NCBI GenBank assembly: GCA_003194485.1
Contig: PQXD01000003.1
Coordinates: forward strand, 33,067-97,066
Origin: Deltaproteobacteria bacterium
Lineage (GTDB): Bacteria; Desulfobacterota; Dissulfuribacteria; Dissulfuribacterales; UBA3076
Reading direction: 5' to 3'
DNA: 64,000 nucleotides
Shown: positions 4,564 to 63,833 of the stretch, piece by piece
How positions within the stretch are numbered: the stretch's first letter is position 1
How the letters are laid out: each line of letters begins with the position of its first letter
Notes under the pieces: model-generated
What the model was told of the DNA's origin: nothing
What the model saw: only the letters and a program-made list of their open reading frames with translations
The model's database searches: none
Position numbers and translations under genes: made by a program

Positions 4564-4600
4564 GTTCTAAGCTGAGACCTGATTAAGAAGGGATTGAGAC
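4564..4600 (+). repeat. solitary CRISPR-type direct repeat, copy 2
   Basis: GTTCTAAGCTGAGACCTGATTAAGAAGGGATTGAGAC ends in ATTGAGAC, a typical 8-nt crRNA 5'-tag sequence. It lies directly upstream of the mazEF promoter. Confidence 0.5.
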
Positions 4601-4638
4601 TGCTTGGCAGATGTGAAAAATACATTGATTTTTTACGC

Positions 4639-4703: not shown

Positions 4704-4976
4704 ATGGAAAAACGGATACGTGCAAGGGATATTAAATTGATCCCTATTGGAAATTCAAAAGGAGTTCGCATACCCAAGGTACTCCTTCAAAAATATGGCC
4801 TTAATAATTCCCTTTTGCTTGAAGAAACAGATAGGGGACTGCTTCTTCGAAAGAAAGATGAAAATAAACTTTCTTGGGAGGATACATATAAAGCCATGGC
4901 TGATGAAAAAGAAGATTGGGGCGATTTTGATACAACGCTTCTTGACGGATTGGAGGATGAAGGCTTTGGATATTAA
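4704..4976 (+). CDS. mazE: AbrB/MazE-family antitoxin
   Basis: The SpoVT/AbrB motif IPIGNSKGVRIPKVLLQKYGL is followed by an acidic C-terminal tail. The gene overlaps the mazF start. Confidence 0.85.
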   Translation: MEKRIRARDIKLIPIGNSKGVRIPKVLLQKYGLNNSLLLEETDRGLLLRKKDENKLSWEDTYKAMADEKEDWGDFDTTLLDGLEDEGFGY

Positions 4977-5292
4977 AAGATATGAAATATATTTCGCTGA
5001 TCTCAATCCCACTATAGGAAGCGAAATTAAAAAAGTACGTCCCGTTGTCATAATTAGCCAAGATGAAATGAATAAATATCTAGAAACCGTTGTCATATGT
5101 CCCTTAACCTCAAGGCTGCATCCACAATGGAGAACCCGCCTTCAGATAAAATGCTCGAATAAAAATGCTGAAATAGCAGTTGACCAAATACGCACTATCA
5201 GCAAACTACGATTAAAAAATAAAATTAATAAGTTATCAGAGACCGAAGCTGCTCAATTACGTATGCTGATAACTGATATGTATGGCGAATAG
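4957..5292 (+). CDS. mazF: MazF/PemK-family endoribonuclease toxin
   Basis: MKALDIKRYEIYFADLNPTIGSEIKKVRPVVIISQDEMN...VVICPLTS is the PemK signature. The ATG at 4957 is in frame within track ORF 4747..5292 and overlaps mazE by 20 nt. Confidence 0.85.
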   Translation: MKALDIKRYEIYFADLNPTIGSEIKKVRPVVIISQDEMNKYLETVVICPLTSRLHPQWRTRLQIKCSNKNAEIAVDQIRTISKLRLKNKINKLSETEAAQLRMLITDMYGE

Positions 5293-5486
5293 CCTTCCTT
5301 TTATCTTTTCTGAAACCCGTCTATCCTTCAACCCCCTGAATCAAATGTGGCACTGATCACTTCTCATGCCGGACAGGATTTAAGGGATTTTGTTTGTTGT
5401 CGACCCCGCCCCTGCCACTTTTGCTGTATCTAAGGAGAGGTTCTTCCCCTAAAGAGAGGAATCGGGCTTTTTGCCTTTCTCAGGGA

Positions 5487-5541
5487 GTACGTCTACGTGC
5501 CCTTCGCCTTGCATCTTCGGCAAACTTGGCTGCTGCATAAT
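5487..5541. repeat. half-copy of the 134-bp palindromic element found at 38109-38242
   Basis: GTACGTCTACGTGCCCTTCGCCTTGCATCTTCGGCAAACTTGGCTGCTGCATAAT aligns with 38178-38232 with only a few mismatches or indels. The left arm is absent here. Confidence 0.7.
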
Positions 5542-7524: not shown

Positions 7525-7608
7525 TTGAAACTTGAAATTAGAAATTAGAACGAAACAAAAGCATGAAGGCCAAATTTCCAATTTCTATTTTCCAATTTCC
7601 AATCTCAA
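7525..7608. repeat. hairpin element built from inverted heptamer arrays (GAAATTA/GGAAATT)
   Basis: The left arm is TTGAAACTTGAAATTAGAAATTAGAA and the right arm is AATTTCCAATTTCTATTTTCCAATTTCCAATCTCAA. The loop GAAACAAAAGCATGAAGGCC is shared with the element at 35010-35095. Confidence 0.8.
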
Positions 7609-7719
7609 CCTTCCGTGAACGTTTACTCTGTCTATGTGCAGCACACAGGCGGTCCATGAAATTGAAACAGCACCGCAAATGAGGTATTATCAACAAAAGA
7701 TTGCGGTTATCTTGGTAAC

Positions 7720-8301
7720 TCTGATTAAACCACTACCTGCTGAAAGCAGGTAGATTTCTTATACGACTGAAAGTCTAACATGGTTCAATCTTTAGTCATT
7801 AGCAATAGTGAAGGCCTCTTTAGGGCTCGCCTTTTCTTGGCTTGCAATATAAGCGGCTATCATTTTTTCTGTAACATTCCCAACTGTTGCACAAAAATAG
7901 CCGCGAGCCCAAAGATGCCTTCCCCAATATCTCTTACGCAAATGCGGAAATTCTTGCTGAATCAGTCGAGAACTTCGTCCTTTCACATATTGAACTATCT
8001 TGCTCGGAGCAAGTTCTGGAGGACATGAAACATGCAGATGAACATGATCCCTGCTAACATGACCATTAAGAATTGTAATATTGCGGGCCTCACAAGTCTG
8101 ACGGATTATCTCCCTGGTTCTAAAAGCCACTTCTCCTTTCAAAACATGATAACGATATTTCGTAACCCATACGAAATGATACTGGATATCATAGATCGTG
8201 TGAGGCCCCTTGCGATATTCTTTGCTTATGGCGATAACCTCCCATGAGCAAGTTTACCACGATCCCTTAACTGCTGAAGCCTTTCGCCTGAAAGGCGAAG
8301 G
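7720..8301 (-). mobile_element. IS200/IS605-family insertion sequence (tnpA only); boundaries approximate
   Basis: A Y1 transposase gene is flanked by subterminal hairpins CTACCTGC-TGAAA-GCAGGTAG (7733-7753) and CCTTTCGCC-TGAAA-GGCGAAGG (8280-8301). No terminal inverted repeats are present, as expected for this family. Confidence 0.7.
7792..8229 (-). CDS. tnpA: IS200/IS605 Y1 transposase TnpA with ATA at the expected start position
   Basis: The frame reads (ATA)SKEYRKGPHTIYDIQYHFVWVTKYRYHVLKGEVA...HVSRDHVHLHVS...YWGRHLWARGYFCATVG, giving the HUH motif and catalytic Y. A GGGAGG SD lies 8 nt upstream of ATA at 8229. The track ORF starts at an internal TTG (8142). Confidence 0.75.
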   Translation of the reverse strand: MSKEYRKGPHTIYDIQYHFVWVTKYRYHVLKGEVAFRTREIIRQTCEARNITILNGHVSRDHVHLHVSCPPELAPSKIVQYVKGRSSRLIQQEFPHLRKRYWGRHLWARGYFCATVGNVTEKMIAAYIASQEKASPKEAFTIAND

Positions 8302-8328
8302 TTTTAGACCTGGCGCATGGAAAAATAA

Positions 8329-12622: not shown

Positions 12623-12677
12623 TGAAATAAATGTTGAATTTCGAATTTAATAAAGGGGGGTAACCTTAATTCAAAAT

Positions 12678-13077
12678 GTAAATATTCGGTGAACCCGTTA
12701 TATCCTGCCTTGAAGCGGTTACCTTTTTCCGGGTTTCAAAGCTCACTCATCGCGGACCGGAGAGGCAGTGCAATCCGGCCCGCGATCGAAACCCTGCAAA
12801 AGGCAAACCGCTCCTGCGGCAGGGCGCGGATGGCAACCGTTCACAGGAAGGGGATATTTCTTTGAACAGTTTATAACGGAAGCCCCCGTAGTTTTCTCGG
12901 CTTTTGCTGTGGGGGAAACTGCATCGCCTTAAGCGCAGCGTAGGGCGAATGCAGAGGGGGCAGGACATCCCCCATGTCAAAAGCCTTAAGAAAACAAGGG
13001 GCTGAAGTGTGAAGTGAAAAGAAATATCCCCTGCCAGTGAACGGTTACGTAGGGTCACGGGTTCAGCGAATATTTAC
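12678..13077 (+). mobile_element. MITE copy A (400 bp, full modular form)
   Basis: The TIRs are GTAAATATTCGGTGAACCCGT and the reverse complement GTAAATATTCGCTGAACCCGT. An exact 8-bp direct duplication TTCAAAAT flanks it at 12670-12677 and 13078-13085. Confidence 0.85.
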
Positions 13078-13167
13078 TTCAAAATTCAACATTATCTATA
13101 AAAAAATATACATCTGGAATATTTTGAGCGAAATCCCGTTCCAGGACCCTTTACAGTGTAATCTTTA

Positions 13168-14901: not shown

Positions 14902-14907
14902 AATGTA

Positions 14908-14949
14908 AACCGCTTCAAGGCAGGATATAACGGGTCACCGAATATTTAC
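14908..14949. mobile_element. MITE terminal fragment or footprint (42 bp)
   Basis: AACCGCTTCAAGGCAGGATATAACGGGTCACCGAATATTTAC equals the module-1 terminus of the MITE. It is preceded by GTAAA. The flanks AGTGAAAT and TGTTAAAT match at 6 of 8 positions. Confidence 0.7.
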
Positions 14950-18800: not shown

Positions 18801-19655
18801 CTAATCTTTCAGACTGACCAGGGCCTGACCGGGACCGTAGTCCAGTTCAACTTTAGCCACTTTTTTATATTTTCCTGAACTATAAAGTTGATACAGGACT
18901 TTTTCCGCCTTACTGAACTGAGAGTTGAGGTCTTCAGTATCAAAGTGAAAAGGAATACCGCTGTCAGCCGTATAGAGTATTAAGGTGTCTTTTCCGGCTA
19001 TGTGTATCTGGCTTATGTTATTGACACCCAGAGTTCTTGTACCTCTGCCTGCCATGGATATTAATTCCAGGGCCTTTTGGATCTGGTGATCTGGTGATTC
19101 GGTGATCTGGTGATTCTCTGTGTACTTCGGATCAATTCCTGTGATGATGGGAAGAGATACGGGCTCTTCCGCAGAAAGTAGTTCATCGATAATCTTACCC
19201 TGCTCATCAATCAAATAGATCTTGTCAGAATTCAATAGGGCTACCGGAGTGCGTTCTTTGATCGTGATCATCAAGTGGTCCGGCAGCTCTCTCTCAACTT
19301 CAACGGCATTGACCCAGGGATGCGCCTCTATGTTCGTTGCGATTGATTCCAGATCGAGAGACATGAGATTGTCCCGGGCGGTTACACCGCTGATCTGCAA
19401 AACCTCCTCTTCTGTGAGATGATTGCAGCCTTTCACCAGGACCTGGCCGACCCTGAAAAGTTCAGACCGACATACCCAATGCCAACACACAAAAAGGCCG
19501 GCAAGAACCAGGCATGCCGAGGCCATGGCGATCAACATTTTGGGATGGATAGACCACGATACCGGAAATATCAGACTGGTCCACGGGCCTGATCCATGCA
19601 TTGAAGACCTGAATTCTGTGGACGTCCTTCTGATCTTCATGTCTCCATACCCCAA
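18801..19655 (-). CDS. ftsQ: cell division protein FtsQ
   Basis: Single TM segment plus POTRA/FtsQ domains, positioned between murB and ftsA. It contains an in-frame octamer array (19081-19116). Confidence 0.8.
   Translation of the reverse strand: MGYGDMKIRRTSTEFRSSMHGSGPWTSLIFPVSWSIHPKMLIAMASACLVLAGLFVCWHWVCRSELFRVGQVLVKGCNHLTEEEVLQISGVTARDNLMSLDLESIATNIEAHPWVNAVEVERELPDHLMITIKERTPVALLNSDKIYLIDEQGKIIDELLSAEEPVSLPIITGIDPKYTENHQITESPDHQIQKALELISMAGRGTRTLGVNNISQIHIAGKDTLILYTADSGIPFHFDTEDLNSQFSKAEKVLYQLYSSGKYKKVAKVELDYGPGQALVSLKD
19081..19116. repeat. tandem octamer array (ATCTGGTG x4, one variant ATTCGGTG) inside ftsQ
   Basis: ATCTGGTGATCTGGTGATTCGGTGATCTGGTGATTC is read directly. It encodes ..NHQITESPDHQI.. 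Confidence 0.9.
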
Positions 19656-21926: not shown

Positions 21927-23115
21927 GACTATGCAGTGTAGAATCTTTCAATGAATTATTCCCTGCTTCAGAACATGAAAGACTATGGCAGGCCATCTTT
22001 ATCAGCGTGGCGGCTATTTCTGCGGCTGCCATGGGTCTTCCGAGTTTTCGAGCATTTTTCCCCATATTAGCGAGTTTTTCAGGATCCTCAAGCAAGGACT
22101 GTATCTCTCCTGCCAGTTTGACAGCACCTATTTCTCCCTCCCGGAAATATTTTGCAGCCCCGGCCACAGACAGTTCTCTGGCATTGGCCTCTTGATGCAT
22201 ATCTGTTGCCGATGGATAGGGAATCAGTATAGAGGGCCTTCCAAGGGCTGTGACCTCGGCCAGCGTACCTGCACCGGCCCGGCAGATAACCAGATCCGCC
22301 CAGGAATAGGATTCACCAATATCGGATATAAATGGAGTCACTCTGGCCGGAATGTCTGCGTCCTTGTAAAATTTCTCAATATCCGGCACATCCAGCTTAC
22401 CGGTTTGGTGGATAATTTCCACATGAAAACCGGATTGCCACAAGACCTGAATGGCCGAACAGACAAGCCGGTTCAGGCATCTGGCACCCTGACTTCCCCC
22501 CAGCACCAGGAGCCTGGAATCTGGTGATCTGGTGATCTGGTGATCTGGTGATTGAATAATGTCTTTCCGTATGGGATTTCCGGTGAAAATTACCCTGTTT
22601 TTTGGAAAGTATCTGGCAGTTTCCTTGAAGCTCACAAACACGGTCTTTGCAAATCTTGAGGCCAGACGGTTCGTGAGCCCGGGGATGAGATTCTGTTCAT
22701 GGATGGCAACGGATACCCGCAATATTCTTGCTGCAAGCAGCACGGGCCCGGAGACATATCCCCCTACACCCAATACCACATGAGGCCTGAATGATTTAAG
22801 CCACAAAAAGGCCCTGGCAGCGGAGGAGGGAAGCCCGGCCAGAGAGCATATGGTTCCTGCAAGGCCTGAGCCCCTGAGAGGTCTTGTACTCAGGATGCGA
22901 TAATCCCATTGACGCCCTGAGAGTGCATCTTTTTCCACCGGACGGCCCGTGCCTATCCACAAGACATCCACATGACCGTATATTTCCATGGCTTCAGCCA
23001 CGGCTATTCCCGGAAACACATGTCCTCCCGTACCACCACCGGCTACGACCAATTTGGTGGTTTGGTGATCCGGGTTGCGGATTACGGATTGCGGATTGCG
23101 GATTGCGATGTCCAT
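21919..23115 (-). CDS. murG: undecaprenyldiphospho-muramoylpentapeptide beta-N-acetylglucosaminyltransferase MurG
   Basis: VVAGGGTGGHVFPG and GGSQGA motifs. The ATG lies 4 nt after the murD stop. The gene carries two in-frame repeat arrays. Confidence 0.9.
   Translation of the reverse strand: MDIAIRNPQSVIRNPDHQTTKLVVAGGGTGGHVFPGIAVAEAMEIYGHVDVLWIGTGRPVEKDALSGRQWDYRILSTRPLRGSGLAGTICSLAGLPSSAARAFLWLKSFRPHVVLGVGGYVSGPVLLAARILRVSVAIHEQNLIPGLTNRLASRFAKTVFVSFKETARYFPKNRVIFTGNPIRKDIIQSPDHQITRSPDSRLLVLGGSQGARCLNRLVCSAIQVLWQSGFHVEIIHQTGKLDVPDIEKFYKDADIPARVTPFISDIGESYSWADLVICRAGAGTLAEVTALGRPSILIPYPSATDMHQEANARELSVAGAAKYFREGEIGAVKLAGEIQSLLEDPEKLANMGKNARKLGRPMAAAEIAATLIKMACHSLSCSEAGNNSLKDSTLHSHV
22519..22553. 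repeat. tandem octamer array (ATCTGGTG x4) inside murG
   Basis: The unit is the same as in ftsQ. It encodes IIQSPDHQITRSPDS at the inter-domain linker just before LVLGGSQGA. Confidence 0.9.
23072..23106. repeat. tandem heptamer array (GGATTGC-type x5) at the murG 5' end
   Basis: GGGTTGC GGATTAC GGATTGC GGATTGC GGATTGC encodes IAIRNPQSVIRNP immediately after the ATG. Confidence 0.9.
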
Positions 23116-33538: not shown

Positions 33539-33934
33539 GTAAATATTCTTATGAACCCGTCCGTGGTCCACTGCGCAGACCGTTCACTGGCAGGGGATAT
33601 TTCTTTTCACTTAACACTTCAGCCCCTTGTTTTCTTAAGGCTTTTGACATGGGGGAGTCTTGCCCCCTCCCCGTTCTCCTTCGCTGCGCTCAGGAGCCGG
33701 GGTTTCCCCCACAGCAAAAGCCAAGAAAACTACGGGGGCTTCCGTTAAACTGTTCAAAGAAATATCCCCTTCCCGTGAACGGTTGCCATCCGTGCCCTGC
33801 CGCAGGAGCGGTTTGCCTTTTGCAGGGTTTCGATCGCGGGCCAAATTGCACTGCCCCTTTCGGTCTGCAATGAGTGAGCTTTGAAACCCGGAAAAAGGTA
33901 ACCGCTTCAAGGCAGGATATATTAGAATATTTAC
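33539..33934 (-). mobile_element. MITE copy B (396 bp, inverted relative to A and C)
   Basis: Near-identical to copy C across module 1 and the hairpin module. The flanks AGAGAATT and GAAGAATC are only partly similar. Confidence 0.85.
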
Positions 33935-33948
33935 GAAGAATCTTTCGG

Positions 33949-34593
33949 TCAGCCTGTAACATCTCTGATATCTTTAGGGCTGATAGCCCCCTCCCGTATA
34001 ATTTCAGGAGGATCAATACTTACATCTATGATCGTGGATGGAGGCCCTCCGGATACAGGACCCCCATCCAGTATATAGTCAGGGGGTGTAGACCGTAATT
34101 GATCCGCAACTTCCTCGGCTTTACAGGCGGCAGGGTGTCCTGAGAGGTTTGCACTGGTAGCGGTCACGGGGTTTCCCAGGATTGTCACCAGTGAATGTGC
34201 CCATGGATGGCTGGAAATCCTTACACCTACCTTGCCTGTATCCGCACAGAGCGGCCATGGCAGCCCGGGTCTGGCCGGTAAAAGCAGGGTCAAGGGGCCC
34301 GGCCAGAGACGCTCCATCAAGGCAACCGCTGCCGGCGGAACCCGGCTGGCCAGATGGATGAGATCCGAGGTATCTGAAATGAGGACCAAGAGCGGCTTGT
34401 GTCTCGGCCTTTTTTTGATTACATATATTCGTTCAAGGGCTTCTGTTTGAATTATTGAGGCCCCAAGCCCATAGCTCGTTTCGGTGGGAAAGGCTACTAC
34501 TCCGCCCCTCTTAATTATATCCGCAGCCAGCCGGATCAATATGCGGTCAGGTGACTGTACCATATCGTAATTAAAAAACAAGTAAGCGCTCAC
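33949..34593 (-). CDS. tsaC: L-threonylcarbamoyladenylate synthase (TsaC/YrdC/Sua5 family)
   Basis: YrdC-domain motif GGVVAFPTETSYGLGA. The true start is probably the ATG at 34563 (MVQSPDRIL...). The GTG at 34593 lies inside the MITE target duplication. Confidence 0.85.
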   Translation of the reverse strand: MSAYLFFNYDMVQSPDRILIRLAADIIKRGGVVAFPTETSYGLGASIIQTEALERIYVIKKRPRHKPLLVLISDTSDLIHLASRVPPAAVALMERLWPGPLTLLLPARPGLPWPLCADTGKVGVRISSHPWAHSLVTILGNPVTATSANLSGHPAACKAEEVADQLRSTPPDYILDGGPVSGGPPSTIIDVSIDPPEIIREGAISPKDIRDVTG

Positions 34594-34595
34594 GG

Positions 34596-34996
34596 GTAAA
34601 TATTCTTATGAACCCGTTATATCCTGCCTTGAAGCGGTTACCTTTTTCCGGGCTTCAAAGCTCACTCATCGCAGACCGGAGATGCGGTGCAATCCGGTCC
34701 GCGATCGAAACCCTGCAAAAGGCAAACCGCTCCTGCGGCAGGGGGCACAGATGGCAACCGTTCACGGGCAGGGGATATTTCTTTGAACAGTTTAACGGAA
34801 GCCCCCGTAGTTTTCTTGGCTTTTGCTGTGGGGGAAACCCCGGCTCCTGAGCGCAGCGAAGGAGAACGGGGAGGGGGCAAGACTCCCCCATGTCAAAAGC
34901 CTTAAGAAAACAAGGGGCTGAAGTGTTAAGTGAAAAGAAATATCCCCTGCCAGTGAACGGTCTGCGGAATGGACCACGGGTTCACCGGATATTTAC
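34596..34996 (+). mobile_element. MITE copy C (401 bp)
   Basis: The TIRs are GTAAATATTCTTATGAACCCGT and the reverse complement GTAAATATCCGGTGAACCCGT. An exact 8-bp duplication GCTCACGG flanks it at 34588-34595 and 34997-35004. Confidence 0.88.
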
Positions 34997-35009
34997 GCTC
35001 ACGGAACGT

Positions 35010-35095
35010 TGGAACTGGAAAATGGGAATTGGGAATTTGGCCTTTACGCTTTTGTTTCATCTCTGCCGAATTTCTAATTTCCAATCTCAAGTTCC
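35010..35095. repeat. heptamer-array hairpin element overlapping the purD-purE stop
   Basis: The arms GGAACTGGAAAATGGGAATTGGGAATTTGG and CGAATTTCTAATTTCCAATCTCAAGTTCC pair. The loop is homologous to that at 7551-7572. The last codons ELEIGN* of purD-purE lie in the right arm. Confidence 0.8.
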
Positions 35096-36882: not shown

Positions 36883-37092
36883 AATCTTCTCTTCCCCCTG
36901 TGTTTTTTTAAGAACAAGGCAGGCTAAAACTATCCGTATGATATAAAGGTGTCAACGCCTGTTCTGGTGATCTATGCTCTCAGATATCTGGCGTTCGGGA
37001 TAGTTGCGGTTTAGATTTGATAATGTTTGGGTAATCGCAGGATCATTGTGATTGTAATACCGTAATCGACGCCGATCTTGCTTGGCTGGAAC

Positions 37093-37289
37093 GTAAATAT
37101 TCTTATGAATCCGTGGTCCACTGTGGAAGTTGCCATCCGTGACCTGCCGCAGAAGCGGTTTGCCTTTTGCAGGGTTTCGATCGCGGGCCGGATTGCACTG
37201 CCTCTCCGGTCTGCGATGAGTGAGCTTTGAAACCCGGAAAAAGGCAACCGCTCCAAGGCGGGACTATAACGGGTTCTCCGGATATTTAC
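37093..37289 (-). mobile_element. MITE copy D (197 bp, short form lacking the internal hairpin module)
   Basis: Both TIRs and module 1 are present. An exact 8-bp duplication GCTGGAAC flanks it at 37085-37092 and 37290-37297. Confidence 0.88.
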
Positions 37290-37342
37290 GCTGGAACGGG
37301 ATAAATTGTTTCAGGGAACCAATAACAAAAGGCAGAAGGAAT

Positions 37343-38089: not shown

Positions 38090-38108
38090 GCGGACATTCA
38101 TAGCGGTT

Positions 38109-38242
38109 ATCATCCCGAATTATGCAGCAGCCAATTTTACCAAATCTGCTTTGTTGTCAGGCACTTGAAGTACAAAAGTACGTCTGCGTGCCTTCCGCCT
38201 CGCATCTTTGGCAAACTTGGCTGCTGCATAATTCGGGATCAT
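38109..38242. repeat. 134-bp palindromic element (36-bp arms matching at 33 of 36 positions, 62-nt loop)
   Basis: ATCATCCCGAATTATGCAGCAGCCAATTTTACCAAA (38109-38144) matches the reverse complement of TTTGGCAAACTTGGCTGCTGCATAATTCGGGATCAT (38207-38242). Confidence 0.85.
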
Positions 38243-38467
38243 ATCACGGCGAGAAGATCTTCTGCCATTTCATCCGCCTCCGTATGAGATTGTCATCTAT
38301 CCTGCCCCGCGTTTGCATTTTTTTCTTGACAGAAAAATCAAGAACTGATATTGCGCATACGTTTCAATTAAGGAATACCTTCCTGGATGTAATCCAAGAT
38401 AGAATACAAGAATTTCCTTTTGACATGCCGACACGATTTTTGTGTTGTGATATCTGGGGACTAAGGA

Positions 38468-38843: not shown

Positions 38844-40685
38844 TTGCAGGATGGTCTCCGGACACTGAAAGTACTCCAAGAAAAGAAAGGCCAAAAAGTG
38901 CCTGATATTCGGGAAATCACCTGGGTGTCAGAGACGGGTTCTACCAATGACCTTGCCAGAGAGAATTTTCAAAAAAGAGGGATTCTGTGGCGCTGTTTTG
39001 TTGCCGGCTCCCAGACCAGGGGCAGGGGTAGGAAAGGCCGGAACTGGATTTCTCCTCCCGGCACCGGCCTGTATCTGTCGATTGCTGTGCCAAGGCCCGG
39101 AATTCTGGAGGCCTGGCTCCCTCTAACCTGCGCCATTGCCTCATCGGCCGCCATACAATCCATTCTCACCAGGTCCCGCTGTGCCAGGCCGCCTTCTATT
39201 AAAATAAAATGGCCCAACGACCTGTATATTGAAAATGGAAAGTTGGCAGGTATGCTTTGCGAACTGGCAGACGGATCCGAAAGTCCTGCCTGGATAATCG
39301 GAATAGGCATAAACATTTGCACTCCGAAAAATGCCTTCCCGGAACATCTCAGGGAAAAGGCGTGTTCCATATCAAGCGCTACGGGTTGCCGGGTCTCCCG
39401 AGACTCCCTGCTTGAAGAACTGCTCGTTCATCTCTCTTTCTGGCTGGGAAAGATATATGAAGGCAATGTCTCGGCTATTTTGAATTTTATTGAAAAAACA
39501 GAAATAATGGGCATAATTCAGGGATCAGAAACCGGGCGGATCTCCAGCCACAGGCCCGCACAGCCTGACACAGGCGACCAGATCGCTGAATCAAGGATAA
39601 TACCGCAGATGCAGACAGATATCCGCAGGCTACAATCGTCAAATCGTCAAATCGTCAAATCGTCAAATCGTCAAATCGTCAAATCGTCAAATCCGCTGGG
39701 TATCACCATGGGCTGTCCGGCGGGAATCGGTCCTGAAATCATTATAAAGGCATTCGCTGCCAATCCTGAATGGCTGCTTTCACCTCCGGCAGTGGTCATA
39801 GGGGACATGAATATACTTAAAAAGGCATCAAGGGCGCTTGATATCGACATTCCCCTTAAGTCCTGGGTGCCTGGAGATCCCATTTCCGGCAGTGCGATAC
39901 ATGTGATTACACGGACAGACCTTAATGCCGAGGATATCCTTTGGGGAAAGCCGAACCCAGTCACTGGAAAGGCCTCTTTCGAGTATGTCACTGAGGGCAT
40001 CAGACTCTGCCTGGGAAAAAGTCTCTCCGGCCTTGTGACCGGCCCTATCAGTAAACTGGGCCTCAGGCTTGCCGGCATCTCCTACCCCGGACATACCGAG
40101 ATATTGGCCGACAGGACCAACACGGAAAGATATGCAATGATGCTGGCAGGCGACAGGCTCAGGGTAGCCCTTGTGACCATACACTGCCCCTTGAGGGAGG
40201 TGGCGGACAGCATCAGCACGGAAAAGATTTTTCAAGTAATTTTCCTTACGGATTCCTTCTTAAGAAATGAACTCGGCATAAAAGAGCCGGAGATTGCCGT
40301 GGCCGCACTGAATCCACATGGAGGCGAGTCCGGGATGTTTGGCAAAGAAGAAGAGCATATCATATCGCCCGCTATAGAAATGGCCCGGGGAAAGGGTATA
40401 GCGGCCAATGGGCCTTATCCTCCTGACACAGTGTTTTATCAGGCTGTCAATGGGAAATTCGACGCTGTAGTCTGCCAGTATCATGACCAGGGGCTGATTC
40501 CCTTTAAGCTCATTCATTTCAGAGACGGGGTCAACCTGACCTTAGGCCTTCCGATAACCAGGACTTCAGTAGATCACGGGACTGCATATGACATCGCCGG
40601 TACCGGAAAGGCGGATTGTGCCAGTCTTGAGGCGGCAATCAGACTCGCATCGAAGATAGTGGAAAAGAGAAAAGAAGGTCCATAA
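38844..40685 (+). CDS. birA-pdxA: fused biotin--protein ligase-like (BirA catalytic domain) and 4-hydroxythreonine-4-phosphate dehydrogenase (PdxA), 613 aa
   Basis: The N-terminal part has VSETGSTNDLA...AGSQTRGRGRKGRNWISPPGTGLYLS (BPL motifs). From ITMGCPAGIGPEII to the end is a complete PdxA. The junction reads QSSNRQIVKSSNRQIVKSSNP. Confidence 0.8.
   Translation: MQDGLRTLKVLQEKKGQKVPDIREITWVSETGSTNDLARENFQKRGILWRCFVAGSQTRGRGRKGRNWISPPGTGLYLSIAVPRPGILEAWLPLTCAIASSAAIQSILTRSRCARPPSIKIKWPNDLYIENGKLAGMLCELADGSESPAWIIGIGINICTPKNAFPEHLREKACSISSATGCRVSRDSLLEELLVHLSFWLGKIYEGNVSAILNFIEKTEIMGIIQGSETGRISSHRPAQPDTGDQIAESRIIPQMQTDIRRLQSSNRQIVKSSNRQIVKSSNPLGITMGCPAGIGPEIIIKAFAANPEWLLSPPAVVIGDMNILKKASRALDIDIPLKSWVPGDPISGSAIHVITRTDLNAEDILWGKPNPVTGKASFEYVTEGIRLCLGKSLSGLVTGPISKLGLRLAGISYPGHTEILADRTNTERYAMMLAGDRLRVALVTIHCPLREVADSISTEKIFQVIFLTDSFLRNELGIKEPEIAVAALNPHGGESGMFGKEEEHIISPAIEMARGKGIAANGPYPPDTVFYQAVNGKFDAVVCQYHDQGLIPFKLIHFRDGVNLTLGLPITRTSVDHGTAYDIAGTGKADCASLEAAIRLASKIVEKRKEGP
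39633..39694. repeat. tandem octamer array (CAAATCGT x6 plus partial units) at the birA-pdxA junction
   Basis: CAATCGT(CAAATCGT)x6 CAAATCC is read directly. Three units equal 24 nt and give the 8-aa peptide period SSNRQIVK. Confidence 0.95.
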
Positions 40686-50231: not shown

Positions 50232-50369
50232 ACATCGAACATCGAACGTCCAACATCGAATGAAAAACAAACATCCAATACCGAACACACAACAGCTATT
50301 TCCGTTTCTTCATCTTTTCCCATTCAAAATTCGATGTTGGACGTTCGATGTTCGATGTCCATTTTTTTT
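50232..50369 (+). terminator. long hairpin plus T8 downstream of rlmH
   Basis: ACATCGAACATCGAACGTCCAACATCGAAT (50232-50261) is the exact reverse complement of 50329-50358. A run of eight T follows at 50362-50369. Confidence 0.5.
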
Positions 50370-52628: not shown

Positions 52629-52999
52629 GTAAACCGATTACAGGGTGCTTCTTTTTCCAACATGCTCTCGCCCCTTGTTTTCTGAGGCTTTTGCAGCCCG
52701 GGACCCTCCCCGTTCTCCTTCGCTGCGCTCCGGAGCCGGGGTATCCAGTTCTGCAAAAGCCAAAAAAACTACAAGGGCTAACGCAAATCGTTTCCAAAAG
52801 AAGCACCCTGTAATCGGTTTAAGTCCATTGTGCTTCGGAGTTGCCATCAGCACCCTGCCGCAGGAGCGGTTTGCCTTTTGCAGGGTTTCAACCGCGGGCC
52901 GGATTGCACTGCCTCTCCGGTCCGCGATGAGTGAGCTTTGAAACCCTGAAAAAGGTAACCGCTTCAAGGCAGGATATAACAGGTTCACCGAATATTTAC
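52629..52999 (-). mobile_element. MITE copy E (variant hairpin arms; left terminus divergent or truncated)
   Basis: Module 1 and the right TIR (reverse complement GTAAATATTCGGTGAACC) are conserved. The hairpin arms are replaced by AAACCGATTACAGGGTGCTTCTTTT / AAAAGAAGCACCCTGTAATCGGTTT. No target duplication is seen. Confidence 0.75.
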
Positions 53000-55571: not shown

Positions 55572-56558
55572 CTAATTCCTGGTTTCATCTCTGCCAAATT
55601 TCTGATTTCCAACTTCAAGTTTCAAGGTATTAAGCCCTTGCATAATCCGGGCATTTATATCCAGGGCAAGCTTGAGCGCCTTCCTTCCCGCCTCTCCTGT
55701 AACTTTGGGTTTTTCAAGGCCCTGCACTGCTCTTACGAATGACACGAGTTCATCATAGAGCATGTCTGTCCCCTCGTGGGTCTTGAATTCAGGTCTGATG
55801 GCAGCCATTGGGCCTGCGCTTAAGTCTCTGGTAACAATCAGGCTCTTGCGCTCCGCGCAATCCGCAGATATATATGCCCCTGGCTGAAATACCCTGATTC
55901 TGCGCATATCCTGGAGAGAAATACGGCTTGCCGTAAGATTTGCAGTGCATCCATTCTCGAAGATGAGCCGCGCGTTTGCAATATCCACCTTTTGAGTAAG
56001 TACCGGCACACCCACTGCCCTTATCTCTTTAAGAGGCGAGCTTACCAGGGCCAGGATTATCTCCAGATCGTGAATCATCAGATCCAGGACCACATCCACG
56101 TCAGTGGCCCTGTCCTTAAATCCGCTCAGCCTGTGGACCTCTATAAAGAGGGGATGCGTCACCTTTGCCTCAAGCACCTTTATGGCAGGATTAAATCGCT
56201 CCAAATGGCCCACCTGGAGTATCAAACCCTTCTCTGCTGCCAGGCCAATGAGCTCATCCGCTTCGTCCACAGTGGCAGAGATGGGCTTTTCAATCATGCA
56301 GTGCACACCATGGGAAAACAGTATCTTGGCAACTTCGTGATGATGAATAGTGGGAACTACCACCGATGCCGCATCGATCCTGCCTATCACCTCATGTATA
56401 TCTGTGCAGGCCCTGGTCCCCGCCTCCTTTGCCACCTCCTGTGCACGCTCAAGAGACAGATCCACGACTCCAACCAGATCCACTCCCTCCATCTGCGCAT
56501 ACTTCTGTGCATGAAATCGCCCCAGATATCCCGCTCCTATAACCGCTGTCCGAATCAA
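55572..56558 (-). CDS. Gfo/Idh/MocA-family NAD(P)-dependent oxidoreductase in the lpx cluster
   Basis: Rossmann N-terminus IRTAVIGAGYLGRFHA and the EKP motif CMIEKP. The last 17 codons lie in a half-copy of the heptamer hairpin element. Confidence 0.8.
   Translation of the reverse strand: MIRTAVIGAGYLGRFHAQKYAQMEGVDLVGVVDLSLERAQEVAKEAGTRACTDIHEVIGRIDAASVVVPTIHHHEVAKILFSHGVHCMIEKPISATVDEADELIGLAAEKGLILQVGHLERFNPAIKVLEAKVTHPLFIEVHRLSGFKDRATDVDVVLDLMIHDLEIILALVSSPLKEIRAVGVPVLTQKVDIANARLIFENGCTANLTASRISLQDMRRIRVFQPGAYISADCAERKSLIVTRDLSAGPMAAIRPEFKTHEGTDMLYDELVSFVRAVQGLEKPKVTGEAGRKALKLALDINARIMQGLNTLKLEVGNQKFGRDETRN
55582..55627. repeat. half-copy of the heptamer-array hairpin element, used as coding 3' end
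   Basis: GTTTCATCTCTGCCAAATTTCTGATTTCCAACTTCAAGTTTC matches 35054-35095 at 38 of 42 positions. Confidence 0.8.
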
Positions 56559-57382: not shown

Positions 57383-58200
57383 AGTTCTTCTTCTCCATTG
57401 GAGGCCATGGGCACGCCCCTTCTGGAAGACCTGATGAATACGGTAAATCTCTTCACCTCGGGCATGCCTCCAAAACGGACCTCCACTGCATCAAGGGCTT
57501 CACTTACCACATCATTCCCTTGAAACACCATTCTATAAGTATCCCTCAAGGCCTCGATGACCTCCCTTGGAAACCCGTGCCGTCTCAACCCGACCATATT
57601 CAGGCCATAGAGATGATCCCTTTGACCCCAGTACTTCACATAAGGAGGTATATCCTTATTTACGCCTGACATGCCGCCCAGAAAGGCATAGGCCCCGATT
57701 CGGCAGAACTGATGTATGGCCGACAGTCCACCAATGATGACGTGCTCTCCTATCTCCACATGTCCCCCGAGAGTAACCCCGTTTGCCATGATCACATTGT
57801 CTCCGACTTTGCAGTCGTGTGCCACATGACAATAAGCCATGAGCAGGCACTGCCTTCCGACTCTCGTAACGCCGCCTCCGCCGTGAGTCCCGCGGTGGAC
57901 TGTGACGAATTCCCTGATTATGGTCCGGTCGCCGATCTCGACCCTCGTGGGCTCGCCACCGTACTTCAGATCCTGGGGAGGGGCGCCAATAGAGGCAAAC
58001 TGGAAAACCTTCGTCTTTTCTCCGAGTCGAGTCCGGCCCTCTATTATGGCATGCGGGCCTATTTCAGTCTCCGGCCCCAATTCGACTTCAGGCCCTATAA
58101 CCGCATAAGGCCCTATCTTTACTCCTTCCGCAATTTCCGAATCAGGAGAAATTATGGCTGTCGGGTGTATATCTCTCTCGATAATCATCAGATTGTCCAA
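57379..58200 (-). CDS. lpxA: acyl-ACP--UDP-N-acetylglucosamine O-acyltransferase
   Basis: Left-handed beta-helix hexapeptide repeats, IHPTAIISPDSEIAEGVKIGPYAVIG, and a C-terminal helical domain. Confidence 0.92.
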   Translation of the reverse strand: MDNLMIIERDIHPTAIISPDSEIAEGVKIGPYAVIGPEVELGPETEIGPHAIIEGRTRLGEKTKVFQFASIGAPPQDLKYGGEPTRVEIGDRTIIREFVTVHRGTHGGGGVTRVGRQCLLMAYCHVAHDCKVGDNVIMANGVTLGGHVEIGEHVIIGGLSAIHQFCRIGAYAFLGGMSGVNKDIPPYVKYWGQRDHLYGLNMVGLRRHGFPREVIEALRDTYRMVFQGNDVVSEALDAVEVRFGGMPEVKRFTVFIRSSRRGVPMASNGEEEL

Positions 58201-58204
58201 TATC

Positions 58205-58290
58205 GAAACTGGAAATTAGAAATTAGAAATTAGGTAATGAATCTACATCTTTGTGTTTTCCCCAATTTCCAATTTCCAGTTTCCAGTTTC
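58205..58290. repeat. heptamer-array hairpin element (lpxA-fabZ spacer)
   Basis: GAAACTGGAAATTAGAAATTAGAAATTAGG pairs with CCCCAATTTCCAATTTCCAGTTTCCAGTTTC. Confidence 0.8.
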
Positions 58291-63407: not shown

Positions 63408-63490
63408 GTTAATAAAATAAAACAGGTCTAAAATGGGCTCCAGTGATAACAAATAAGACTATCTCAATCAAGTAAAACATATAATTATAA

Positions 63491-63748
63491 CTATTGAGTT
63501 AGCTCCGTTTCGATATATAGTCTTTGATTATTGGATAATCATCCCTTGTCCCTCCAATGCTCTCATCCCTTGTTTTCTGAGGCTTTTGCAGCATGGGACC
63601 CTCCCTGCTCTCCTCCGCTGCGCTCCGGAGCCAGGGTTTCCCATACTGCAAAAGCCAGGAAAACTGCGGGACTTCCGCAAGTCACTCCAAGGGATAATCA
63701 TCCAATAATCCGTTACAATTAGCATATGATGCGGAGCTAACTCAATAG
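63491..63748. repeat. stand-alone copy of the MITE core hairpin (copy F) with its own unrelated outer stems
   Basis: The core CCCTTGTTTTCTGAGGCTTTTGCAG...CCGCTGCGCTCCGGAGCC...CTGCAAAAGCCAGGAAAACTGCGGG is shared with copies A, B, C and E. The outer stem is CTATTGAGTTAGCTCCG / CGGAGCTAACTCAATAG. No TIR or module 1 is present. Confidence 0.75.
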
Positions 63749-63833
63749 TCATAACATATAAATGGATTTTAGTTTGACACCCGGGCTTGCTGCTGTTAAC
63801 CAGAAATCATTACTCAAGGAGGATGCTTTAATT

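Follow-up and report, generated by a model that had tools for sequence, protein, structure and literature searches.

Correia/NEMIS of Neisseria, MITEAba12 of Acinetobacter (PMC6382973), ERIC, Nezha and Chunjie are short, non-coding, multicopy elements that are bounded by terminal inverted repeats (TIRs), flanked by target-site duplications (TSDs), located between genes or within operons and strongly inclined to form hairpins. The repeats that we found in the window, by which we mean the whole stretch of DNA that was analysed (64,000 nucleotides), are likewise built in all these respects. The TSD is TA in Correia and 9 bp long in MITEAba12. Among plant MITEs the nesting of one MITE within another is well known. 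Several of the IS families in the ISfinder tables make 8-bp TSDs, termini that begin with GTAA are a trait of IS66, and Y1 elements have no TIRs and leave no duplication on insertion. Within the IS66 family the single-transposase ISBst12 group is an accepted member, and for ISDge4 GTAA/GTGA-starting TIRs have been reported, with a direct repeat of 8 bp produced when it transposed in an experiment (PMC12898284).

A preliminary description had taken the window repeats for a non-autonomous TIR/TSD family that has no matching transposase in the window, is not moved by a Y1 enzyme and is intergenic. This core reading held in each of the tests that the description had put forward, and several details of it had to be redrawn, as set out below.

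Seven copies in the window and their anatomy

Self-comparison of the window recovered all seven of the stretches first described, each of which was then read directly, with coordinates that were the same or off by a few bases. Copies A, C and D are bounded by inverted repeats of the form GTAAATAT(T/C)C...GAACCCGT. The TIR of the element that we call MITE-1 is 21 bp long in these copies and not 22 bp as originally counted, and reads GTAAATAT(T/C)CGGTGAACCCGT; at some ends its central GGTG is replaced by a TTAT or TTGT variant. Perfect 8-bp direct duplications were read on both sides of A, C and D, where the chance of an 8/8 flank match is about 1.5e-5 per copy, and none of them extends into a shared flank as a piece of a longer repeat would. 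All window copies lie in spacers, and their neighbours (folP/cdaA, ybbR/glmM, yceG/tsaC, purD-purE/tsaC and DUF364/purD-purE) agree with those named before; in the neighbourhood of the copy E spacer, purB adjoins a nucleoside-recognition membrane protein gene. The open reading frames within the copies gave no Pfam match. The features are as follows.

12670..12677, no strand: left TSD of copy A, TTCAAAAT, by direct reading; identical to 13078-13085
12678..13077, plus strand: copy A, 400-bp composite of a MITE-1 backbone and a nested foldback element, TIRs GTAAATATTCGGTGAACCCGT / GTAAATATTCGCTGAACCCGT, by direct reading and copy alignment
12833..13048, plus strand: nested MITE-2-type foldback element in A, ends GCAACCGTTCAC... 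/ ...GTGAACGGTTAC, apical stem variant CTGCATCGCC/GGCGAATGCAG
13078..13085, no strand: right TSD of copy A, TTCAAAAT, by direct reading
14905..14949, minus strand: in-situ internal-deletion derivative of MITE-1, flanks AGTGAAAT / TGTTAAAT (6/8)
33539..33934, minus strand: copy B, 396-bp composite with a 9-nt deletion in one TIR and a degenerate TSD (5/8)
33575..33786, minus strand: nested MITE-2-type foldback element in B
34588..34595, no strand: left TSD of copy C, GCTCACGG, by direct reading
34596..34996, plus strand: copy C, composite of 401 bp with purD/purE on one side and tsaC on the other, also in same-species contigs L122-L126
34754..34965, plus strand: nested MITE-2-type foldback element in C, apical stem variant CCCCGGCTCC/GGAGAACGGGG
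34997..35004, no strand: right TSD of copy C, GCTCACGG, by direct reading
37085..37092, no strand: left TSD of copy D, GCTGGAAC, by direct reading
37093..37289, minus strand: copy D, simple 197-bp MITE-1 with two TIRs and a hairpin core of about 140 bp, without nested element
37290..37297, no strand: right TSD of copy D, GCTGGAAC, by direct reading
52629..52822, minus strand: MITE-2a copy of 194 bp, TIRs GTAAACCGATTACAGGG / TTAAACCGATTACAGGG, one half of "copy E"
52823..52999, minus strand: partial MITE-1 of "copy E", one TIR and the backbone up to the CAATGGAC site that holds MITE-2a; second MITE-1 terminus missing, no TSD
63485..63753, minus strand: MITE-3, TIR TATGACTATTGAGTTAGCTCCG-like, with a MITE-2-like hairpin core inside; ACATATAA at 63477-63484 and 63754-63761

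The five full or near-full copies counted at the outset are all present, but they are not versions of a single unit: one is simple (D), three are composites (A, B and C) and one is a hybrid (E). When the copies are aligned in one orientation the basic MITE-1 unit measures about 195 bp and D is its simple form, consisting of a 21-bp TIR, an imperfect hairpin of about 140 bp, some 15 nt and the second TIR. A, B and C hold a long imperfect palindrome of 212-216 bp at an identical internal position, and these 400-bp copies are MITE-in-MITE composites. In copy E the left two-thirds of the simple element adjoin a distinct, related palindrome of 194 bp, the outer end of which is the boundary of the repeat. 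Copy E has a single family TIR and no TSD; at its opposite end lies the TIR of another, nested element. E matches the left part of a composite of the type found in contig L146 but stops at the MITE-2 terminus, and an intact version of its MITE-1/MITE-2a arrangement is present in L146 and L239. At the same purB-side junction, contig L265 has a similar MITE-2 copy that lacks the MITE-1 part and whose upstream neighbour is not the same. Both E and L265 could be the outcome of recombination between two MITE-2 copies, with assembly chimerism as the alternative.

Two other stretches also changed their meaning. The 42-bp terminal fragment reported at 14908-14949 is a real sequence but is better delimited as 14905-14949 and better described as a collapsed copy in its insertion site, in which one whole TIR and 19 nt are followed directly by TTTAC, the final 5 nt of the second TIR, and the flanks match at 6/8. 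This 45-bp stretch is an in-situ deletion derivative of MITE-1. In contig L254, 52 bp stand between the same TTCAAAAT repeats in place of the 400-bp copy A, and the deletion reaches from the TIR to the arm of the nested element, with GTGAAC at either endpoint. The 45-bp stretch and the L254 remnant represent the same kind of collapse. The stretch at 63491-63748, previously a "core-only relative", turned out to be a separate third MITE (63485-63753) with ACATATAA on both sides, where the palindrome core sits within a different inverted-repeat pair.

Copies in metagenomes, nesting layers and present activity

Public metagenome contigs were scanned with an invariant 25-mer of the backbone, which returned at least 120 stretches; together with the 7 in the 64-kb window this makes a dispersed multicopy family. 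Among the matches listed there are 72 two-ended copies at 68 unique sites, with lengths of 195-608 bp that fall into three classes over the 68 listed sites, about 195 bp (n = 42), about 378-404 bp (n = 21) and about 602-608 bp (n = 5). The 68 unique copies listed have GTAAATAT(T/C)CGGTGAACCCGT or the TTAT variant at both ends, and their flanks match at 8/8 in 30 cases, 9/9 in 2, 7/8 in 12, 6/8 in 8, 8/9 in 1 and at most 5/8 in 15. The TSD sequences of the listed sites differ from one site to the next, and one perfect TSD, GGACAGTC, surrounds a copy in the MAG "Deltaproteobacteria bacterium isolate E20SeepSRB2". Several of the low-scoring sites (5/8 or less) share one flank with another site and are assembly chimeras or recombinants, L124 being an example. 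Copies elsewhere, over these 68 listed sites, thus keep the termini and the 8-bp (occasionally 9-bp) duplications that the preliminary description had made its own point of refutation. When empty sites were reconstructed only 1 of 33 fell in a long open reading frame, as against 73% of random positions on the same contigs, and the duplicated octamers are 65% A+T in a background of 50% G+C. The repeats are products of transposition that survive in AT-rich intergenic DNA. In scans of viral contigs neither the backbone nor the hairpin core was found, and the plasmid database gave a single weak match, to a DUF4338 gene.

The boundaries of MITE-2 and MITE-3 were obtained by following each palindrome from its loop towards its two ends in every contig that had been fetched. 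MITE-2 has a GTAACCGGTCACAGGG-like TIR with the start GTAACCGG. Its standalone copies are 191-196 bp long, with termini GTAACCG(G/A)TCACAGGG...CCCTGTGA(C/T)CGGTTAC, and are flanked by perfect 8-bp TSDs in L158 (GAGAGTTA) and L233 (AAATGATC) and by 7/8 matches in others. Since standalone copies carry perfect TSDs, the nested palindrome is a MITE in its own right that moves alone. Within a simple MITE-1, MITE-2 is flanked by CAATGGAC and CAGTGGAC (L146 and L239), and the 600-bp class results from the same CAATGGAC/CAGTGGAC insertion on top of the 400-bp composite, at the site CA(A/G)TGGAC. The fixed nested version in A, B and C ends in GCAACCGTTCAC.../...GTGAACGGT(TAC), recognisably the MITE-2 type of TIR. 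No duplication was seen around the nested element at this fixed position in A, B and C, so that either form may have come first: MITE-2 may have entered the short form in a single insertion, or a deletion in the composite may have given rise to the short form. The reverse order of nesting also occurs, as in L190 a MITE-1 is inserted in the arm of a MITE-2. MITE-3, with the TIR TATGACTATTGAGTTAGCTCCG, is flanked by perfect 8-bp AT-rich TSDs in other contigs (TAAATAAA, AATAATTA and TTATAAAA in L143, L233 and L238).

The family has therefore transposed many times, in successive layers, and in this sense the term "active-looking" of the preliminary description is borne out; for current activity it is not, and the evidence for present movement is weak. 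It is quite possible, at odds that we would put just short of even, that the family is a fossil which spread in the past and is immobile now, the ongoing change being decay, deletion and recombination between copies. Pairwise identity of the backbones has a median of 94% and exceeds 97% in 8% of pairs. The insertions A, C, D and E, which are all the comparable ones, are common to contigs of other samples that are 98-99.7% identical, and the strain-level differences at MITE sites consist of the 52-bp collapse in L254 and of changed flanks alone. Same-species contigs all hold the insertions or end within them. Nor was a clean empty site seen, the reconstructed empty sites being absent among the fetched contigs; the orthologous loci L130 and L131 (83-88%) have no copy D in the same intergenic region, with flanks too diverged for an exact junction. 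In addition, neither the window nor 0.94 Mb of MITE-bearing contigs gave a tblastn match to an IS66 transposase. Against a fossil family, the TSDs are perfect at nearly half of the unique listed sites and match at 7/8 or better in two-thirds, which argues against great age, and three rounds of nesting indicate repeated activity. Metagenome assemblies moreover break at repeats and insertion sequences, and the scan fetched MITE-containing contigs alone, so that a transposase or an empty-site allele is easily missed.

The hairpin core

The long palindromes invite the question of a function beyond mobility. The hairpins could be structured RNA or DNA modules, or could have been co-opted as such (for instance as attenuators, as sites of RNA processing or stability, or as palindromes within operon spacers to which proteins bind), mobility being secondary, and we consider this unlikely. 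A core of about 110 nt is common to copies of MITE-2a, 2b, 2c, 2d and MITE-3 and stays 77-87% identical although it is found with four or more different terminal sequences; around its GAGCGCAGCG loop, which does not vary, the apical stem takes one of two mutually complementary forms. Folding predictions give each copy a very stable structure on both strands (z of -10 to -14). In all five window copies the nested hairpin is 7-19 kcal/mol better on one strand, the MITE-1 core being better on the other; these copies are related by descent, so that this bias, which is consistent but weak, does not represent independent observations. The arms show 157 G.T against 79 A.C mismatches, but the majority, 1163, is of neither kind. 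The orientation between co-directional genes, 16 versus 6, amounts to a weak, borderline bias.

Other points speak against such a function. TIR pairs must co-vary for transposase binding, quasi-palindromes can be symmetrised by templated repair, and the elements collapse by deletion, as in L254, without obvious consequence. None of the copies matched a covariance model of Rfam 15 at the gathering score or at E <= 5, and terminator-like and promoter-like signals were in no excess over shuffled sequences. That the core of about 110 nt is itself a selected structural module, acting as RNA or single-stranded DNA and spread repeatedly by different TIR pairs, seems to us similarly improbable. Among other roles, a selected module might act within operon spacers as a signal for the processing or stability of RNA, or might be a cofactor site for IS66-type transposition.

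The probable parent family and related systems

Returning to the repeats as mobile elements, we looked for their parent in the IS66 family because the GTAA start and the 8-bp duplication pointed there; this start is found in MITE-1 (GTAAATAT) as well as in MITE-2 (GTAACCGG). A scan for the TIR pattern in one genome per species proved too degenerate, most of its 120 loci being chance matches, and the signal was extracted by BLAST. Dozens of MAGs of beta- and gammaproteobacteria, and a few from other phyla, contain the exact 21-mer GTAAATATTCGGTGAACCCGT, and wherever enough sequence is present it bounds a transposase gene of the IS66 family. The transposase inside these TIRs matches PF03050 / NF033517 with E values of 1e-53 and 6e-88, and scores 296 and 282 bits with NF033517, for which the cut-off is 180. 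Such a gene was found between the TIRs in L068, L063, L020, L023, L024, L056, L088, L011 and others, all from organisms other than that of the window. The elements come in two architectures, one of about 2.7 kb, in which an open reading frame of 286 aa that matches PF14236 (DruA/DUF4338) comes after the transposase, and one of 1.8 kb with the transposase alone; the canonical tnpA, tnpB, tnpC organisation is absent from these TIR-sharing elements. Their transposases are 42-86% identical to one another, their TIR is identical, and similarity ends right after it. One 21-bp TIR has in this way been kept letter-perfect across divergent IS66 transposases of several phyla. Perfect 8-bp TSDs flank five of the full-length elements; the pairs in L068 and L067 and five others lack them.

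The longer element with the same TIRs and a transposase that the preliminary description had suggested searching for thus exists, but it was found in other phyla only. Within the window tblastn detects no IS66 transposase, in line with what was first reported, and the same is true of the contigs from these communities that bear the MITEs, 0.94 Mb in all. A profile search of protein databases returned just Proteobacteria-like IS66 transposases on IS-sized contigs and nothing that pointed to the lineage of the window. Since the same 21-mer is the TIR of full-length IS66 elements that make 8-bp TSDs, we regard it as highly probable that the repeats are IS66-type MITEs mobilised in trans. The enzyme would have been an IS66 transposase resident in the lineage, now or formerly; we only infer this step because neither the window nor the 0.94 Mb of contigs contains one.

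A different DDE family with 8-bp duplications (IS1595, ISL3, IS256 or IS6-type) could have moved the repeats if the match to IS66 TIRs were a coincidence. Such duplications are not unique to IS66, and the search of the lineage turned up no transposase, of whichever family, that has these ends. This is nevertheless very unlikely: an exact 21/21 match to both ends of many independent IS66 elements is not a matter of chance, the divergence immediately inside the TIR is what a shared transposase-binding site would give, and the GTAA start is typical of IS66.

Systems of the IS200/IS605 palindrome-associated and REP/RAYT kinds likewise involve hairpin-rich intergenic repeats, and the window contains a Y1 gene. 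The preliminary description counted two; an IS200-like one was verified (7792-8142), and neither tblastn nor Pfam scans of the open reading frames in question revealed a second. The element around this gene (7730-8323, about 594 bp) is polymorphic between strains, being cleanly absent from a 99% identical contig, and shows exactly the pattern without TIRs and TSDs that was ascribed to Y1 families. IS200/IS605 and REP/RAYT elements lack both features whereas the window repeats have 21-bp TIRs and 8-bp TSDs, so that mobilisation by the window's Y1 transposase, for all the hairpins that these repeats share with Y1-mobilised ones, is contradicted by termini and duplications alike and has a practically negligible chance of being right.

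The termini and duplications, the size and nesting of the family, its intergenic bias and the identity of its TIR with that of IS66 elements are observed, and on this basis we propose the following course of events. MITE-1 consists of two 21-bp TIRs around a non-coding imperfect hairpin of about 140 bp, and an IS66-family DDE transposase supplied in trans would bind both TIRs. Insertion at a staggered cut of 8 bp, rarely 9 bp, and repair of this cut would leave the flanking duplication, and insertions persist almost solely in AT-rich intergenic spacers. MITE-2, a foldback element of about 190-215 bp, is nested at a fixed position of the backbone, and the resulting 400-bp composite would have spread by its MITE-1 ends to give A, B and C. 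An extra MITE-2 insertion at CA(A/G)TGGAC has produced the 600-bp forms elsewhere. In copy E the left part of a composite would have come to adjoin the MITE-2 junction on the purB side, with recombination or deletion as the most likely cause. Long palindromes also collapse in place by microhomology deletion, leaving the 45-bp remnant at 14905-14949 and the 52-bp remnant at site A.

An abundant repeat of uncultured seep and hydrothermal Desulfobacterota that, to judge by the MAGs in which the MITE occurs and by purD-purE relatives, are probably related to Seep-SRB2, a partner lineage of methane-oxidising archaea, can in this way be given a named parent family (IS66) and a mechanism. The repeats explain assembly breaks and chimeras at operon spacers in these genomes, and the 400-bp and 52-bp alleles at site A can serve as strain markers. 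Our understanding of MITEs as a class is unchanged by the result. The searchable literature held no specific description of IS66-derived MITEs, of an IS66 element with DUF4338 or of Seep-SRB2 repeats, which is not proof of absence; descriptions of IS66-derived MITEs appear to be rare.

Among known systems, the ISBst12-like elements of the IS66 family (ISDge4 and the 1.8- and 2.7-kb elements in L011, L025, L044, L063 and L088) likewise have GTAA-starting termini and 8-bp duplications, and the elements in these five loci have a 21-bp TIR identical to that of the window elements. They differ in that the window elements measure 195-400 bp, encode nothing and have an unrelated interior, and in that the full-length elements belong to Proteobacteria and other phyla and not to the lineage of the window. 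Plant nested MITEs likewise consist of a MITE within a MITE, with the composite amplified by its outer ends, and two- and three-layer forms occur here; the present case is bacterial, and both layers appear to be IS66-type (GTAA ends and 8-bp TSD). Compared with Correia, MITEAba12 and similar MITEs, it is the TIR sequence and the presumed parent family that differ. The window family is a bacterial MITE comparable to Correia and MITEAba12, with an IS66 parent type and self-nesting in the style of plants.

IS200-like element

The preliminary description counted two Y1 (IS200/IS605-type) transposase genes, both from families that leave no target-site duplications (TSDs). A single Y1 gene could be verified in the window, and the element that carries it indeed lies at its site with no target duplication:
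7730-8323, IS200-like element, about 594 bp, with terminal hairpins
7792-8142, minus strand, its Y1 transposase gene (PF01797)

Contig L250, elsewhere 99% identical to the window, shows a clean absence of the element, a true presence/absence polymorphism.

Flank switches within MITE copies

Contigs from other samples change to unrelated flanks precisely within MITE copies (L124 5767-6167; L252, L255 and L256; L264 and L265). The more probable explanation, for part of these switches, is that metagenome assemblers linked different loci via the MITE copies; the less probable one is that the copies mediated genome rearrangements. Given these switches, conclusions on gene order drawn from these MAGs need caution.

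Repeats in spacers and open reading frames

Heptamer-like repeats (GAAATTN / CCAATTT) form arrays in several intergenic spacers of the window:
1780-1813
7540-7611
35011-35093
55582-55621
58198-58288

In other contigs such arrays are insertion targets of MITE-1, the basic IS66-type MITE of the window, with the TSDs TTGGAAAT and ATTGGAAA. A perfect 30-nt inverted pair at 50232-50358 is built from CGAAC/ATCGA-type pentamer runs (ACATCGAACATCGAACGTCCAACATCGAAT); in L130 and L131, related loci (83-88%) without MITE-1 copy D, similar runs fill the DUF364-purD spacer, where copy D is located in the window.

Directly downstream of the DUF364 gene lies an imperfect 136-bp palindrome (38108-38243; arms of 42 nt, 88% complementary) which, together with a partial 56-nt copy downstream of the MazF gene (5486-5541), constitutes a further small repeat family. 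Near the latter, two copies of a 42-nt direct repeat (1732-1773 and 4564-4605; 90% identical, 2.8 kb apart) flank small ORFs, with the MazF/PemK toxin gene (4747-5292) downstream of these ORFs; the second copy gives a weak match to CRISPR-DR8 (E = 3.7, far under the gathering score).

Short in-frame tandem repeats, runs of the octamer ATCTGGTG, occur within ORFs of the cell-division/murein gene cluster. The in-frame repeats lie at:
19065-19123
22511-22569

At about 39.8 kb, the linker of ORF 38844-40685 (613 aa) holds a repeated SSNRQIVK peptide, and its counterpart in related contigs has BPL_LplA_LipB and PdxA domains.

Full-length IS66-family elements

The TIR-pattern scan, over a single genome for each species, yielded in other phyla IS66-family elements with a shared terminal inverted repeat (TIR):
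L068, 808-3499
L063, 1786-4476
also in L020, L023, L024, L032, L033, L056 and L088

Their TIRs are identical in 21/21 letters, their transposases in just 42-86%. Missing from a 1.8-kb IS66-family form (L011, L016, L025, L044), a second ORF within the TIRs of the L068/L063-type elements matches PF14236 (DruA/DUF4338), a domain of the Druantia defence system.
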